NCBI RefSeq assembly: GCF_024700885.2
Contig: NZ_CP117016.1
Length of the DNA stretch: 64,000 nt
Origin: Escherichia coli
Lineage (GTDB): Bacteria; Pseudomonadota; Gammaproteobacteria; Enterobacterales; Enterobacteriaceae
Strand: one strand, 5' to 3'
A program made the translations under genes and the position numbers. The notes under the pieces are model-generated. The model was not told the origin of the DNA, did not search any database, and saw only the letters and a program-made list of their open reading frames with translations. Position 1 is the first letter of the stretch, and each line of letters opens with the position of its first letter. Of this stretch, positions 3,419 through 9,878 are shown piece by piece.

Positions 3419-3503
3419 GCCGAAGTGGCGAAATCGGTAGACGCAGTTGATTCAAAATCAACCGTAGAAATACGTGCCGGTTCGAGTCCGGCCTTCGGCA
3501 CCA
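3419..3503 (+). tRNA. leuX: tRNA-Leu (anticodon CAA)
   Basis: 85-nt sequence GCCGAAGTGG...TTCGAGTCCGGCCTTCGGCACCA with a CAA anticodon loop and long variable arm; genomic position after ahr. Confidence 0.9.
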
Positions 3504-4016
3504 AGTCACTAAATTCCTTACAATACAGGTAGTTAGACAATAAAATCTGTCTCTTTTGCCTGTAAGAAATGCTCTGTTATGTCCCTTGAAAAAGCCGCTG
3601 TGGTTGATAGTGGTAATTGGGATGTTAACTCATAGCGGCGTGTAGTTCCAAGCGTCAAACACGTACTGACTCAACTTGAAAGCTATGACGTAGCCACTGT
3701 CTCTAAACAATCCCAAAAACTTTTAGTGAAGCGCATTTTAGCCCGATGCCCCCGTTCTGCCGCTGTCGCGAGACGCCGCAGGGGATAAACAGGTTTATGG
3801 TGGTCACGGTACTTGCAGACCATATGCAAGCTCTGCCAGCGGTTCGGCCTCGCTCCCCTTGGGTACATGGTCATCCTGATAAGCCTCACTAACTGACATA
3901 ACTGTGATGTAGTCGCCAGAGGCTCCGCTTGTTGTCTTACCACCAACGGGGCTTTATGGATTCTATTGCGGTATGTTTGAAAGTGCGCGGGGGTTCATTC
4001 CCGCGCGTCCGGCGCT

Positions 4017-4931
4017 TTATGGTAAGTATTTAAGTATTTCTGCTGCCCAGTTTACACGGTGGATGACACGGGCATGGTGCAAGTTTCCGTCTAGTATTTC
4101 GGCTTTAGTTAGCTGGGATAACTGCTGCCAATTATTGTTAAGTATATAAGTTGCGTTATTACATTGTGAGCTTTCTAGCACGTAAATGTTTTGGCCTGTG
4201 AACCCAAATATCACGTAGCCTTGGAACCCAGCTTGCCCAACCGCTACGAAATCTGGTTTTTTACTATTGATAAGTTCAAGTCTGCCTTCAACAACAGCGG
4301 TATTGCCCTTTCCCCTGATCTTAATAGCTGAAAGGATTTTTGAGCCGATAGTACTCCAAGGCTGTTGACCCTGAGGCAGGAGGCTCCAGTTTAGTTTTAT
4401 AGATTTACTTTTAACGATGGTATTAAGTTGGTCGTCAACAGTTTCGCACAACCCAAAAAGCTCTAAAAAAAGATTAATGCAGTGAGCCACTAACTCTTTG
4501 TTGTTAGCTGTCAAACTTAGCTTTGGAGAGATGATCAACTTCTCCCCTTGAAGATTCTCTACAATCTTTAACTCTATGCTTGGTGGAGGGGTGAGGATTC
4601 TCTTGTAGCGCTTATACTCAATTTCACGAGTGTCAGTAACTTCTTGAGTTGCGCCCCCTCCGATCCATTGCTTTCTAGTCCATGAAATTTGTCTGTATGC
4701 AGTTTCTTTAGGTGCTGTTTTGTCAGGTACTGATTTGCCATTAGCATTGAATCTGGTTATTGGCCCTAAAATCTTGGGGAGGACTTCTTCACCTAAAGCT
4801 CTTTGACTTGAGAAACCAATAGAGTCCGTTTTCCCCGCATCTGGCAAAGAATGTGCAATGTAGATATCACGGCCATCAAAGTTAGGTATGTAATTATCAA
4901 TATTTCGAATACGCTTTTTCTGAATAAGCAT
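4017..4931 (-). CDS. Hypothetical protein, 304 aa, no family recognised
   Basis: Long ORF in AT-rich island DNA; no motif I can assign. Confidence 0.6.
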   Translation of the reverse strand: MLIQKKRIRNIDNYIPNFDGRDIYIAHSLPDAGKTDSIGFSSQRALGEEVLPKILGPITRFNANGKSVPDKTAPKETAYRQISWTRKQWIGGGATQEVTDTREIEYKRYKRILTPPPSIELKIVENLQGEKLIISPKLSLTANNKELVAHCINLFLELFGLCETVDDQLNTIVKSKSIKLNWSLLPQGQQPWSTIGSKILSAIKIRGKGNTAVVEGRLELINSKKPDFVAVGQAGFQGYVIFGFTGQNIYVLESSQCNNATYILNNNWQQLSQLTKAEILDGNLHHARVIHRVNWAAEILKYLP

Positions 4932-4994
4932 GGATCGTTCCTTTTGATTTTATCTTACTGTTTACATAACCAACCAAGCCGGGCACAATCGAGC

Positions 4995-5094
4995 CGTTAG
5001 AAACGATAGTGAGGCTAACAATCGTTATGAGTTTGCAGACTCATGGCGGTCATGCTTCATAGACCGGATTCACGCAGGTGACTCCGGTTTTTTT
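4995..5094 (+). ncRNA. Candidate small structured RNA with intrinsic terminator
   Basis: Three consecutive hairpins by eye (aacgat/atcgtt; atgagt/actcat; ccgga/tccgg) ending in a 7-T run at 5088-5094; possible sigma70-like promoter (tttaca-17 bp-cacaat) upstream. Confidence 0.3.
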
Positions 5095-5906
5095 ATGCCC
5101 ATCATTTATACATGAGCACAACATATAGGGTGTGTTAATAAGATTACCCCCTACATGTTCAGCATTCTAGTTAGGATTCTTTGCAGTACAAGGGGTGATT
5201 TTGAGGTTAAATTGAGGTTGTCAAAGGGAAATTTCGACCAACCCTACGTGCCGTAAGGCTTAGGCTGTATGTCAATGTTTCAGAAAAAAAATGAAAATTT
5301 GATCGAGTGCTGATTTCTTTAGCACGAGAACATGAGATCGAACCAAAATATTGCAAAGTTTTGAACAAAACTTGAGCTGCCTCGTGTCTCCATAGCCAAG
5401 ACGAATGCAGTTTAAATAAGCTAAGTCAGCTCTCAAAAGTCCTTTATGACCCGAACCAAAAATTGTACCTCTTAAACCCCCACCGCAAGCGGCTCTCCGG
5501 GGTTTGTGCGCGTGGAGTAATGCGATTGTACTGGGTATGTGCGCACAACCCTCTACAAGCCGCATTCTACCGTTAGCCTATAGCTGAATCCCCGGCTTGA
5601 AAAATTGCACGCTTATGGTTGCCCCTCCCTCAACTGTATAGCTCGCCCGCGCCCCCGTGCGCATGTGCGTGCCCGCGCGTCAGGGGTCGCTGAGAAAACC
5701 CTAAGATTTTGCTCATCCGAGACAACCGTTGCAGGCGCGCGTTGCCGGGGCACACTGTTAGTGTTTGATGGTGTCATCAATCGACCGTTTTCTGGCACCT
5801 CCCAATCGCACGCTTTCACACTGTTGGAAAAATAGCCTTGGCTTTTCTGGCAGGCCATCCTAATGTTGGCCTCGTTTTCTGGCAGGGGTCAGATGGGGAG
5901 ATAACA

Positions 5907-6467
5907 ATGGCAACTTTTGGCTACGGACGTGTTTCGACATCGCAGCAGGATACTGAGAACCAACGGCTGGAGCTTGGGCAGGCTGGGTGGCAAATTGATT
6001 ACTGGTTTGCCGATGTTGTTAGCGGGAAGGTTCCGGCAATGCAACGTAAAGCATTTTCTGAAATGCTCAATAAAATCCGCGATGGTGAAACGTTGGTGGT
6101 AGCGAAGCTTGATCGTCTGGGGCGTGATGCGATTGACGTCCTGCAAACGGTAAGGGCGCTGGCTGACCGTAATATCAAGGTTCTTGTCCACCAGCTTGGT
6201 AACACAGATCTCACTTCTGCCGCTGGGAAGTTGCTATTATCTATGCTCGCCGCGGTTGCGGAGATGGAGCGTGATCTGCTGATTGAGCGCACTCAGGCGG
6301 GACTATCACGAGCAAAAGCCGAAGGTAAGAAATTGGGCAGACCTCCTAAAATCGCGTCAGAAGCCCGTAGAGAGATTTTAGAGAAAAAGAATAGCGGTTT
6401 GAGTATCAGTGCGTTAGCGCGTCAATATGGCGTTTCAAGAGCGACTGTAGCAGCTATTACCGATTGA
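5907..6467 (+). CDS. Small serine recombinase (resolvase/invertase family)
   Basis: N-terminal GYGRVSTSQQ catalytic-serine motif and C-terminal HTH (LSISALARQYGVSRATV); start at MATFGYGRVS with SD ggggag. Confidence 0.85.
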   Translation: MATFGYGRVSTSQQDTENQRLELGQAGWQIDYWFADVVSGKVPAMQRKAFSEMLNKIRDGETLVVAKLDRLGRDAIDVLQTVRALADRNIKVLVHQLGNTDLTSAAGKLLLSMLAAVAEMERDLLIERTQAGLSRAKAEGKKLGRPPKIASEARREILEKKNSGLSISALARQYGVSRATVAAITD

Positions 6468-6480
6468 ATATGGAGAGTTT

Positions 6481-7326
6481 ATGGCTTACACAGCAACTGT
6501 TATCCCTGTAATGATTGCTTCTCCTGGTGATGTCGCTGAAGAGAGACAAGTCATTCGTGAAATGATCCATGAGTGGAATGATATAAATTCAGCTCGTTCA
6601 AAAGTAATGTTGACACCAATTGGATGGGAAACTCATACATCACCCGAATTAGGAGTTAGGCCTCAGAAGTTGATTAATCAAAGATTATTAGTAGATTGTG
6701 ATTTATTAATCGGTGTGTTTTGGACTCGTCTAGGCTCACCGACTGGGAACGAGGCCAGCGGAACAGTCGAAGAAATCCACCGTCATTTGAATGCGGGAAA
6801 ACCGGCAATGATTTACTTTTCCTCAAAGCCTGTTGCCCCTGAAAGCCTTGATAGAGAACAATATGAGTCTCTTAAATTGTTCAAAACTGAGTGCATGCAA
6901 AAGGGATTGATAGAGTCTTTTAATGACTTATCTGATTTCAAAGACAAAGTCCGTAGGCAACTTTCGATAATTATTTCTAGTAGCCCTTATTTGTCTTCTC
7001 TTATATCTACCATTAACAATTCTCCTGATGCGAATACAAGTCAATCTTTGCCAGAAAGTAATTTGTCCGCCGATGCACTCAGTTTGCTGAAATTGGCATG
7101 TGTCGATGATAGCGGAACAATTTATGTGATAAGGCATTTAGGTGGCACGGATATTCAAGCGGGAAATCAATCCTTTGGTGGAAGTTCGGCTAGAGAGGTA
7201 GCCCGTTGGGAGGGCGCACTTAACGAACTGTTATCCTTTGATTATGTGATTGAAAGAGGGGCAAAAGGACAAATGTATTATGTTACTCATAAAGGCTGGA
7301 CATTTCTTGAATCTTTAAATGAATAA
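6481..7326 (+). CDS. Hypothetical protein, 281 aa; N-terminal motif resembles DUF4062/TIR-like domains (tentative)
   Basis: Starts 13 bp after the recombinase stop with its own SD (ggagag); N-terminus VMIASPGDVAEERQVI fits a strand-SxxD-x-EER pattern; C-terminal half unassigned. Confidence 0.6.
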   Translation: MAYTATVIPVMIASPGDVAEERQVIREMIHEWNDINSARSKVMLTPIGWETHTSPELGVRPQKLINQRLLVDCDLLIGVFWTRLGSPTGNEASGTVEEIHRHLNAGKPAMIYFSSKPVAPESLDREQYESLKLFKTECMQKGLIESFNDLSDFKDKVRRQLSIIISSSPYLSSLISTINNSPDANTSQSLPESNLSADALSLLKLACVDDSGTIYVIRHLGGTDIQAGNQSFGGSSAREVARWEGALNELLSFDYVIERGAKGQMYYVTHKGWTFLESLNE

Positions 7327-7386
7327 TTAAATGCGAGGCCATTACATAAGTTTATTTTTGATGTGAGGGTGAATTCCCTCACATTT

Positions 7387-7881
7387 TTATTCGAAAGAGG
7401 CCGCAATGACTTCTCCTGTTTTTGCGTTGAAAACACAAAAGTATTGAAGCGGAGCTAGCATCCCCAAGCCGTTAACTACCTTAGCTTGTTGCCCAAATGC
7501 CTGAATAATCTTCGCATTCTCATCGTGCCAGAGATAAGTATTAAATACAGGCGCTTCGCTTTCTTGCCACACATGGCGAAACTTCGCTTTCTCATCCATT
7601 ACCTTTTTGCACTCCCTGACCGGGTTATGGTGCGTTTTCGCATAGCATTCCGGGTTGTCATCTGCACATACGATATCTTTTCGTGCTGTCTGATGCTCAG
7701 CACCTACAGCAGAAAAGGCGCATACGCCCAGCACCAATGAGAGAGTGCCCAGAGCACCCCATACAGTTGCGCGTAGCGTGCTGATGTGCTGCTTTGATAC
7801 AGCATGGGCAACTACACTATAACTGGCCCAGCTAATCGCGGCTCCCGCTGCAATCGGTAGTAAAAAGTCTGCTCCCGTCAT
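7387..7881 (-). CDS. Hypothetical membrane protein (two predicted TM helices plus Cys-containing soluble domain)
   Basis: ORF with hydrophobic N-terminal segments; start set at MTGADFLL with SD gaggga. Confidence 0.5.
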   Translation of the reverse strand: MTGADFLLPIAAGAAISWASYSVVAHAVSKQHISTLRATVWGALGTLSLVLGVCAFSAVGAEHQTARKDIVCADDNPECYAKTHHNPVRECKKVMDEKAKFRHVWQESEAPVFNTYLWHDENAKIIQAFGQQAKVVNGLGMLAPLQYFCVFNAKTGEVIAASFE

Positions 7882-8121
7882 GATTCCCTCACTTTCCAAA
7901 CCACATCGCGCCTGATAGCGAACGCTGGTGACGCCCAACCGATGATGATCATCATACTTGTTGGGTTTTAAATGTCACCATTGGTGTTTGTTTTGAATCA
8001 AAAAGGATTGTCATGATACAGCCGATGAATGCTAGTGACTAAGCTCGCTGACGTGAGATTGGATTCAAAATATCTCATATGGAGCGTGGCCTTACAGTGG
8101 TCAAAATTGCACATTCAGTGC

Positions 8122-8586
8122 ATGAAAAAATCCCTGAGAATACAGTTTGGCGAGCGGGTAAAAGAACTGCGCATTGCCACCGGATTGAGCCAGGAGGCCT
8201 TTGCCGATCGGTGCGGGTTTGCACGTAGTTATATGAGCAGAATTGAACGTGGTGGCTCTAATGCGTCTCTGGATGCGATTGAGGTGCTGGCTAACGCTCT
8301 GAGCGTTGAGCCGTGGCAGTTGTTAGCGCCTGGCCCATCTGAAGATAACGACTCGGAACTGTTGGTTCCATACGCAGCCGATGGTTCCTGTTTTCACCCC
8401 GGTTTGGCGAGCACCCGTGATGGCTCGTTTGGCGTAGGTGATAAAGCGGCTCAGAAGCGTTTTGGCACGTTTGCTGAAGCTCTTGAGTATCTTCGTAGCA
8501 TGGAGACAGCAAAATGGCGTAGGCCTAATCCTAGCGGCAACTGGGGTATCGTATCAGCGGTTCGGTGGGACAAACTGAGAAAGTAG
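8122..8586 (+). CDS. XRE-family HTH transcriptional regulator with unassigned C-terminal domain
   Basis: N-terminal HTH (LRIATGLSQEAFADRCGFARSYMSRIERG); start at MKKSLRIQ. Confidence 0.6.
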   Translation: MKKSLRIQFGERVKELRIATGLSQEAFADRCGFARSYMSRIERGGSNASLDAIEVLANALSVEPWQLLAPGPSEDNDSELLVPYAADGSCFHPGLASTRDGSFGVGDKAAQKRFGTFAEALEYLRSMETAKWRRPNPSGNWGIVSAVRWDKLRK

Positions 8587-9076
8587 CTCAAGTGTAAGTT
8601 TATGAATTTTCATGCTGTATGGATGAACAGTATTCATTAGATGCTGATAGTCTTATGTTTCATCAGCCCTTTGTTTCTATAAGAGTGAATAAAACAGCAA
8701 AATGCGGGTGCGTTACGTAGGCGTTACGGTGGCGTTTCGCTTTGGCTCTTAATGGCTTAATTCATATAAATAACATTGAGTTAAATAGTTATTCTGAACA
8801 AGGTCTGCCGGGGTCTAACTGGTTTCAAAATCCGAACGCAGTGGCGTTTATTCAACGTCCACATAGCTGACAAATGTTCTTTCCTCCCGACTCGGCAGAC
8901 CTCCAGAAACATTAAAAGGCAGGTATGGCACGTTGATGTTTTATGCCGCCACGAACACTCGGTTTGATTCCGTCCAGCGGATCAAACTTAATATGTAGCC
9001 CCTAGAACAAAAAGGTCCTACGATTGCTCTCTTAACAGCTAACAGGAACGTGATTACAGCAGGTTATAGAGACTTA

Positions 9077-9101
9077 GGTTCGAGTCCGGCCTTCGGCACC
9101 A
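9077..9101 (+). repeat. Direct repeat of leuX 3' end (att core copy)
   Basis: 25/25 identity to 3479-3503. Confidence 0.85.
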
Positions 9102-9115
9102 AAAGTATGTAAATA

Positions 9116-9287: not shown

Positions 9288-9878
9288 ATGGCATTAACAG
9301 ATATCAAAGTCAGAGCAGCCAAGCCAACGGATAAGCAATATAAGCTGACTGATGGTGGCGGTATGCATCTGCTTGTCCATCCAAATGGTTCTAAGTACTG
9401 GCGTTTGCAGTACCGTTATGAGGGAAAGCAAAAAATGCTGGCACTTGGGGTTTATCCTGAAATCACACTAGCGGATGCCAGAGTACGTCGTGACGAGGCG
9501 CGTAAGCTGCTTGCGAATGGCGTCGATCCGGGAGACAAAAAGAAAAATGATAAGGTTGAACAGAGTAAAGCACGAACCTTTAAAGAAGTCGCGATTGAGT
9601 GGCATGGCACCAATAAAAAGTGGTCTGAAGATCACGCCCATCGTGTGCTAAAAAGTCTTGAAGATAATCTTTTTGCAGCGCTTGGTGAACGTAATATCGC
9701 TGAGTTAAAAACTCGAGATTTATTAGCACCTATTGTTCCTTTAACCATCCGCAATGGCCAACGGTTTACAGAGCATAATACGAATAGCCGTAGAGCCAGC
9801 CAGTTACGGTGGTCGCGATGGTGTGTCCGCCAGAAAATCACCACGAATACCAGAATCGCGGCACTGACCAGAAAATGA
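9288..9878 (+). pseudogene. P4-type tyrosine integrase (IntB-like), N-terminal ~150 aa only
   Basis: MALTD.KVRAAKPTDK...YWRLQYRYEGKQKMLALGVYPE matches the P4-integrase N-terminal arm; similarity is lost near 9740 and the catalytic domain is absent. Confidence 0.75.

Follow-up and report, generated by a model that had tools for sequence, protein, structure and literature searches.

A candidate controller gene and its divergent membrane-protein neighbour in a leuX islet of Escherichia coli

Little is known about the regulation of defence islands. The described systems that come closest to the locus treated here are the controller (C) proteins of restriction-modification (R-M) systems and, concerning the islands themselves, defence loci that are marked by small serine recombinases (PMC12632615, a preprint of October 2025). 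The operators of C proteins, the C-boxes, follow the consensus 4-N3-4-N4-4-N3-4 with a conserved central GT (PMC2175313), and for C.AhdI two sites centred at -44 and -29 as well as a leaderless mRNA are reported (PMC2275141). The locus in question is a divergent gene pair, MEM (7387-7881, minus strand) and HTH (8122-8586, plus strand), situated in a window of 64,000 nucleotides of the Escherichia coli chromosome at the leuX locus (contig NZ_CP117016.1 of assembly GCF_024700885.2; the window is the whole stretch of DNA that was analysed, and all positions refer to it). Neither of the two genes is mentioned in PMC12632615. With a probability of roughly one half, the pair unites a controller with its cargo (the controller-plus-cargo reading) and forms the right end of a cargo hotspot flanked by a recombinase, a type of hotspot that occurs in small defence islands, mostly beside tRNA genes.

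The gene pair and its exchangeable neighbours

A first-pass annotation made from the sequence had described the pair as a 164-residue protein with two transmembrane (TM) segments diverging from a 154-residue XRE-HTH protein. Both open reading frames (ORFs) are found at the positions given above and agree with RefSeq, where their coding sequences are labelled 'hypothetical/membrane protein' and 'helix-turn-helix domain-containing protein', respectively. MEM begins with an ATG behind a GAGGG Shine-Dalgarno motif and is anchored by a hairpin of two TM segments, to which a periplasmic alpha+beta domain of about 100 residues is joined; in HTH, a linker connects an XRE domain resembling that of C proteins (residues 1-68) to a conserved domain (residues ~78-154). 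Longer ORFs of 183 and 185 residues, contained in the mechanical ORF list, are not supported, because the conservation upstream of the HTH gene stops at around 8058-8062 in loci with another neighbour.

Pairwise comparison of ten loci gave ratios of nonsynonymous to synonymous substitution (dN/dS) of 0.21 for MEM and of 0.07 for both HTH and the serine recombinase of the islet. Judged from these values, MEM and HTH are real genes under purifying selection, which travel together where both are present. Co-occurrence across genomes, which had been proposed as a check of the pair, was borne out in part: where MEM is present, it, HTH, and the recombinase diverged together, with similar dS of about 0.8-0.9, but HTH is present in 953 of 5426 complete E. 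coli genomes (~18%, including Nissle 1917 and O157:H7) and MEM in only 496 of these 953.

In the genome scan, 19 enterobacterial-type loci include sequence on the respective side; in 11 of them, HTH diverges from MEM. In O157:H7, where HTH has 90% protein identity, its neighbour is not MEM, but a protein of 257 residues with a signal peptide. Across the HTH family, 11 types of neighbour were read, nine of which possess a signal peptide, a lipobox, or a TM segment; MEM is thus one of at least nine unrelated exported proteins found at this place. One of the exported families, of 247 residues (loci L002, L013, L016, L018, L021, L022, L024, L028, and L089), exhibits no homology to MEM in hhalign (probability 0.2%) and is modular: a conserved N-terminal domain (LPAKGYKNG...) is followed by a helical C-terminal domain bounded by cysteines, which exists in two alleles. 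Parts of this family also occur alone, the C-terminal domain in Serratia and the N-terminal domain in Pseudomonas.

HTH itself is around 90% identical across Enterobacterales, whatever its neighbour. MEM, in turn, almost always adjoins this HTH; the sole exception is a Yersinia island, in which MEM keeps its own promoter and box, while HTH lies 1.1 kb away and is paired with an exported protein of 246 residues. Plasmid copies that appear to carry only MEM or only HTH represent one pair split by an IS1 element at ~7997-8000, and IS1 is situated at the same intergenic point in some chromosomal copies as well (L003, L004, L005 for plasmid and chromosomal copies together). Given this constancy of HTH beside a changing neighbour, and the near-constant position of MEM beside HTH, HTH is to be regarded as backbone and MEM as a frequent occupant of an exported-protein slot; MEM and HTH are no obligate two-gene unit.

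Candidate operators and the controller-like protein

The 62 bp upstream of the HTH start codon are conserved whatever the neighbour, even in Pseudomonas. They contain a 26-bp box pair with C-box geometry (8074-8099, plus strand), i.e., two 11-bp units around a central CGTG with centres at -43 and -28 from the ATG. The pair extends from -48 to -23 and reads (CACY or CTCA)-N3-(GGAG or AGTG)-CGTG-(GCCT or GCTC)-N3-(AGTG or GGTG); only two or three of the Enterobacterales upstream regions deviate in the central CGTG or the flanking quartets. The homologues of beta-proteobacteria and Pseudomonas exhibit a GCGTGG core between two repeats spaced by 15 bp. A weak candidate -10 element, CACATT (8110-8115, plus strand), is located 7-12 nt before the ATG in conserved columns of the alignment, and the sequence upstream of the HTH gene contains no Shine-Dalgarno motif; the HTH mRNA is thus probably leaderless. 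As spacing and position of the boxes are those of C-boxes, the Shine-Dalgarno motif is lacking, and the -10 element is weak, we infer C-type autoregulation of HTH from a leaderless promoter.

For MEM, the promoter scan predicts a sigma-70 promoter on the minus strand (7951-7978; 10 of 12 matches), with GTGACA (7973-7978) and TATGAT (7951-7956) separated by a 16-nt spacer. It is found in every examined MEM-type upstream region with an intact intergenic region, even where HTH is not adjacent. Over its -35 element lies a palindrome, CACCATTGGTG (7976-7986, readable on either strand), hereafter site L, which falls into conserved alignment columns and shares the half-sites of the box pair, making it a candidate operator. 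A leftward GTGACA-16-TATNAT is present in 25 of the 37 distinct upstream regions, either at -46, within the distal box, or at around -143, at site L. In loci with cargo other than MEM, which comprise three unrelated types, the -35 element of the promoter is the reverse complement of the TGTCAC that opens the distal box; an occupied box should therefore block the cargo promoter. The divergent promoter of MEM loci is situated 97 bp further out than in these non-MEM loci. This overlap of the divergent -35 element with either the box or site L is the main evidence for a control of the neighbour by HTH.

Concerning the protein, the N-terminal domain matches Pfam HTH_31 (residues 8-63, 1.9e-14) and the PADLOC model Control_protein (1.3e-18) and is closest to the controller proteins of R-M systems; with C.AhdI it is 47% identical (phmmer E=1.5e-11), and the recognition helices read RSYMSRIERG in HTH and RSYVGGVERG in C.AhdI. 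The PADLOC model capH (1.6e-10) is likewise matched within the HTH domain only, and the same domain alone gives weak matches to the HipB, MqsA, and PezA antitoxin models. Homologues of HTH form 443 clusters that reach Pseudomonas and beta-proteobacteria. Proteins 89-100% identical to the enterobacterial HTH are also filed under Collinsella (a metagenome-assembled genome), Martelella alba, and Chryseobacterium (L006, L010, L018); these copies probably reflect contamination or mis-binning. Pectobacterium has a 153-residue HTH protein upstream of JukA, but with 21% identity this is another XRE protein.

The approximately 90 residues behind the DNA-binding domain, to which the first-pass annotation could assign no motif, remained equally unmatched here: for residues ~78-154, no Pfam family and no relative in the PDB were found, and a profile search of the C-terminal domain against PDB and Pfam gave only chance matches to designed beta-trefoils. 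The AlphaFold2 (AF2) model comprises a disordered linker (73-78) and a confident beta-rich domain (81-151). This domain is strongly constrained (dN/dS 0.054), with W132, R134, P135, N136, and W149 invariant among 20 diverse full-length homologues. A full-library search retrieved 445 cluster representatives (at 50% identity). Concerning the architectures of the 145 among the best 150 matches that align over most of the domain, it stands alone in 35 proteins of at most 125 residues, follows an ASCH-like domain in 39, and follows another domain of ~220 residues and unknown nature in 42; it is further found after XRE HTH domains and, in single cases, together with UDG-like or with GIY-YIG plus RNase T modules. 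In Gallionella (L055, 4373-5549), an ASCH gene is directly followed by a gene that opens with a C-terminal domain of the HTH type, with HigBA-like genes and an integrase alongside; the adjoining separate genes support a functional link between ASCH and this domain. ASCH and UDG-superfamily proteins were recently linked to defence against phages with modified DNA. The domain is thus a widespread unannotated module tied to ASCH and UDG-like enzymes, which may bear on the sensing of modified phage DNA. As to its role in HTH, one can only conjecture that it binds nucleic acid or a signal, or that it oligomerises and joins site L to the box pair.

The membrane protein and the competing explanations

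The hydrophobic segments of MEM comprise residues 6-25 and 38-61, and its AF2 model contains helices at 4-29 and 35-67, forming a hairpin, followed by the alpha+beta domain, with predicted local distance difference test (pLDDT) values of 86-90 over residues 121-164. The net positive charge is confined to the short loop between the TM segments; from this charge distribution, both termini should face the periplasm, and the predicted cytoplasmic part is a loop of only ~10 residues. The soluble part, which the first-pass annotation had called rich in cysteine and histidine, is indeed conserved in this respect across 105 homologues: C91, Y80, H84, and P87 do not vary at all, C72, C79, and C149 hardly vary, and the motif C-x6-C-x4-HH-x5-C is kept. 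The domain may be disulfide-bonded or metal-binding, and its fold weakly resembles that of cystatins. Constraint differs between the two parts of the protein, with a dN/dS of 0.29 for the TM hairpin versus 0.16 for the periplasmic domain (pairwise, ten loci). The tiny cytoplasmic loop and the less constrained hairpin argue against a pore-forming effector and against a sensor that signals directly to HTH. The earlier proposal of a regulator paired with a membrane effector or sensor is supported in part.

Homologues of MEM (144 clusters) are restricted to Enterobacterales. In PADLOC-DB 2.0, no family was matched at E<=1; NCBIfam and a profile search of the PDB gave no match, and a sub-threshold Pfam match to EamA was treated as TM noise. 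Likewise, no match was found in BFVD (viral structures; Foldseek at E<=0.001) or by tblastn in 50,697 GenBank phage records. IMG/VR contains one locus, in which MEM again adjoins the HTH gene together with an AbiU-like gene. A PHROGs match (phrog_20749) concerns a family of unknown function, and a phage origin on this ground was set aside given the near-absence of MEM from phage genomes. That constraint is stronger in the periplasmic domain, that the Cys/His motif is conserved, and that other exported proteins can take the place of MEM suggests, taken together, a membrane-anchored protein acting in the periplasm. A protective role at the level of the envelope, in which MEM would keep phages from entering or confer immunity to a toxin that acts in the periplasm, can be proposed with low confidence; a pore-forming abortive-infection effector, a sensor coupled to HTH, or the toxin of a toxin-antitoxin system each fits these data less well.

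According to the controller-plus-cargo reading, HTH dimers would bind both the box pair and site L. HTH would autoregulate its weak leaderless promoter, as C.AhdI does, and would simultaneously cover the -35 element of the divergent cargo promoter and thereby repress it. The C-terminal domain of HTH might modulate this control, either because it oligomerises and so bridges site L and the box pair, which are 93 bp apart, or because it binds nucleic acid or a ligand signal. MEM, anchored by the TM hairpin with its termini outside, would work through its Cys-rich, weakly cystatin-like periplasmic domain. Most likely, it would confer protection at the envelope, where it would keep phages out or neutralise an agent that acts in the periplasm, and would not be a pore-forming suicide effector.

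Several points weigh against this reading. The operators are candidates assigned by geometry and conservation, the half-boxes are CACY/RGTG instead of the canonical GACT/AGTC, the outer half of the distal box is degenerate (CTCA) in MEM-type loci, and the box/palindrome pattern is not significantly enriched across the whole window. No R-M genes are present in the islet, hence HTH is not a classical C protein. The role of MEM is the weakest step of the explanation: the protein has no sequence match in PADLOC, Pfam, or PDB, has no significant viral fold match, and is near-absent from phages; the mean pLDDT of its AF2 model is 74, its resemblance to cystatins is weak, and C-x6-C-x4-HH-x5-C could hold a metal instead of forming disulfides.

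Among the alternatives, the first-pass annotation had favoured a self-contained two-gene abortive-infection or defence system, in which HTH silences a toxic membrane effector until infection. The pair does lie inside a defence islet, a candidate operator overlaps the MEM -35 between the divergent genes, and these are co-inherited at similar dS, with MEM almost always beside this HTH; such a system is nevertheless improbable, as HTH stays ~90% identical while unrelated exported proteins replace MEM, constraint on MEM is lowest in the TM hairpin, MEM has no PADLOC match, and splits of the pair by IS1 are tolerated on plasmids and chromosomes, unlike what would be expected of a strongly toxic gene that needs its repressor in cis. 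A type II toxin-antitoxin system with an XRE antitoxin and a membrane toxin, to which the weak HipB, MqsA, and PezA matches of the HTH domain might point, has hardly any likelihood: the genes are divergent instead of forming a bicistronic operon, MEM matches no toxin family, its periplasmic domain is large, HTH is matched best by C proteins, and the C-terminal domain of HTH is nearly invariant whatever the neighbour, such that no partner-specific co-variation is seen.

Two further explanations are marginally more probable, though both are still unlikely. MEM and the other slot proteins might be orphan immunity or protective proteins against toxins acting in the periplasm (bacteriocins or effectors of type VI secretion and contact-dependent inhibition systems), with an interbacterial and not an anti-phage function. 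The gathering of many unrelated families of small proteins (periplasmic, lipoproteins, or TM-anchored) in a single mobile slot, the swapping of the Cys-bounded C-terminal domain between alleles of the 247-residue family as in polymorphic immunity proteins, the inhibitor-like cystatin fold, and the near-absence of MEM from phages are all consistent with it; on the other hand, none of the copies was seen to have a cognate toxin gene nearby, anti-phage genes alone fill the module's other slot, and the searches made gave neither a sequence nor a fold match to a known immunity family. Alternatively, HTH might be a regulator of island maintenance, acting on the recombinase operon, excision, or transfer, with MEM as an unrelated passenger. 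The conserved backbone consists of two genes, HTH and the recombinase, no further gene separates HTH from the distal end of the island, and the conserved region upstream of the recombinase contains the box-like CACTGTTGGAA; however, this box is a single weak match that lacks statistical support, and the overlap of the divergent cargo -35 with the box in three unrelated types of cargo rather suggests direct control of the neighbour. An extension of the controller-plus-cargo reading would make HTH a signal-sensing controller, whose C-terminal domain is a new sensor of nucleic acid or modified bases, shared with ASCH- and UDG-type enzymes, and which derepresses the exported, periplasm-acting protein upon infection or transfer. 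MEM and HTH would then form a new C-protein-governed system that acts against phages or toxins at the envelope and whose periplasmic effectors can be exchanged; this extension is improbable.

The islet, related loci, and comparison with known systems

The islet is integrated at leuX, the gene for tRNA-Leu (CAA) (3419-3503, plus strand; ARAGORN, Rfam, and RefSeq), which is the only match that Rfam gave in the islet. The 3' end of the tRNA gene forms a 26-nt direct repeat, GGTTCGAGTCCGGCCTTCGGCACCAA (3479-3504, plus strand), of which a 100% identical copy is found at 9077-9102 (plus strand); these exact repeats mark the left and right boundaries, and 3505-9102 is therefore a discrete islet of 5.6 kb. 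A degenerate copy of the repeat is situated at 8961-8986, and in L006 a second copy of the left end of the islet follows the repeat. No integrase is encoded in the islet itself. It is arranged in tandem with an older island, whose P4-type tyrosine integrase is truncated (9288-9749, plus strand; an ORF annotated as pseudogene in RefSeq). Near the left boundary, a hypothetical protein of 304 residues (4017-4931, minus strand) is encoded, which is present only in this E. coli version of the islet; it is absent from the compared loci and without match in Pfam, NCBIfam-type, or PADLOC models.

Nucleotide comparison with related loci reveals within the islet a sharply bounded conserved module from ~5773 to 8741, a 3-kb unit for which no convincing terminal inverted repeats were found. 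At its left end (5773-5906, plus strand), where conservation starts sharply in 10 loci, it contains three copies of TTTTCTGGCA (5788-5797, 5843-5852, and 5875-5884), invariant in these loci, which are candidates for recombinase binding sites or res-like sites; the region also contains a candidate recombinase promoter, and CACTGTTGGAA, which resembles the HTH box, lies in it at 5819-5829. The left backbone gene follows, a small serine recombinase of the resolvase/invertase type (5907-6467, plus strand; Pfam Resolvase, 1.3e-36), 80-92% identical across the enterobacterial-type loci of the genome scan. Only 13 bp behind it begins a DUF4062 TIR-like gene (6481-7326, plus strand), which is convergent with MEM and represents Swarozyc-like defence cargo (PADLOC PDC-S60, 1.3e-26; Pfam DUF4062 just under the cut-off, with 23.1 versus 24.7 bits). 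The DUF4062 family was named Swarozyc and described as a single-gene abortive-infection NADase system in a preprint of May 2026 (10.64898/2026.05.01.722283); the protein possesses Glu97 at the position of the reported catalytic E97 and a weak winged-helix match at 247-281, and the gene is probably a Swarozyc NADase defence gene. Between it and MEM, the terminator scan found a G+C-rich hairpin with T runs (7360-7385, either strand), likely a bidirectional terminator. The right end of the module (8587-8741, plus strand), where conservation stops sharply in 12 loci, exhibits a terminator-like hairpin and two GCGTTAC repeats (8710-8716 and 8722-8728); these repeats (GCGTTACGTAGGCGTTACGGTGGCGTT, 8710-8737) sit exactly where the conservation of the module ends and could be a recombination or binding site.

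The enterobacterial-type loci of the scan, and further loci that were fetched, are built on this same plan, with a serine recombinase, variable cargo, an exported protein, and HTH. In place of the DUF4062 gene, they contain DRT9, a reverse transcriptase (RT) scoring as retron type XII RT-TIR, SIR2 with DUF4365, an HNH protein, JukA, an AbiU-like AIPR protein, or PDC-M36A. The resemblance to defence loci noted in the first-pass annotation is thus supported, both by the DUF4062 neighbour and by systems such as DRT9 and JukA in the same slot of related loci. Complete islands of other E. coli consist of tRNA-Gly, an integrase, Shedu and other genes, the recombinase, DUF4062, MEM, and HTH, followed by core genes. 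In O157:H7 (L002, 7531-10642), the leuX island contains the module next to a phosphorothioate-dependent restriction enzyme and type II Zorya; as Zorya II was assigned to O-island (OI) 172 by a 2025 preprint, this locus can be inferred to be OI-172. In E. coli MRY15-117 (L087, 6206-14034), an integrase, an HNH gene, a gene for an exported protein of 115 residues, HTH, and the recombinase are flanked by two annotated thiamine pyrophosphate (TPP) riboswitches; the island appears to have integrated into the TPP riboswitch upstream of thiM, thereby duplicating it.

Conserved at about 90% identity at the edge of the hotspot, HTH could serve as a second bait, beside the serine recombinase, in the search for new defence cargo, and the diverse exported proteins next to it are an unexplored class of island cargo. 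If the regulatory architecture proposed here, which is directly testable, proves true, the switch of the C proteins has found a further use beyond R-M systems.

One comparison for MEM is offered by small proteins of the inner membrane or periplasm that mobile elements carry, such as Imm and Sp of phage T4, Cor, and Llp; the topology and inhibitor-like fold of MEM are compatible with such a type of protein. The phage tblastn and BFVD searches revealed neither sequence similarity nor significant fold similarity to superinfection-exclusion proteins (Imm, Sp, Sie, Cor, Llp), and these are encoded by phages and prophages, whereas MEM is not phage-borne; its function could nonetheless be analogous. 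Among regulators embedded in defence systems, CapH/CapP of CBASS, BrxR/CapW, and RptR resemble HTH in that a DNA-binding regulator with an additional C-terminal domain is conserved beside variable defence cargo on mobile islands. There are, however, differences in each case: the islet contains no protease or peptidase gene of the CapP type, the C-terminal domain of HTH is not a WYL domain as in BrxR/CapW, and it is an exported protein that diverges from the regulator, while the intracellular defence gene is transcribed with the recombinase. Similarly, the recombinase-marked systems of PMC12632615 (RADS) share with the present module a small serine recombinase, followed immediately, within 100 bp, by a defence gene on the same strand, and a variable cargo, whereas a conserved HTH across the hotspot and an exported-protein slot are absent from that study.

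The greatest similarity exists to the C.PvuII/C.AhdI group of C proteins. The XRE domains are homologous, with a recognition helix near-identical to that of C.AhdI; the candidate upstream operator is bipartite, with a 15-bp periodicity and a central CGTG, and its centres lie at -43/-28 compared to -44/-29 in C.AhdI; as in leaderless C genes, a Shine-Dalgarno motif is lacking, and the -35 and -10 elements are weak. Despite this general similarity, there are differences: HTH comprises 154 residues, twice the size of the single-domain C proteins (~70-100 residues), owing to an added conserved domain of ~75 residues; its half-boxes are CACY/RGTG instead of GACT/AGTC; its neighbours are MEM and the end of the islet, with no restriction or methylase gene adjacent; and the gene it would control is divergent and encodes an exported product, whereas in R-M systems it is a co-transcribed nuclease gene. 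The locus is therefore best described as a variation on the C-protein controller theme, with an added domain, without R-M genes, and with divergent exported cargo, inside recombinase-marked defence islands.

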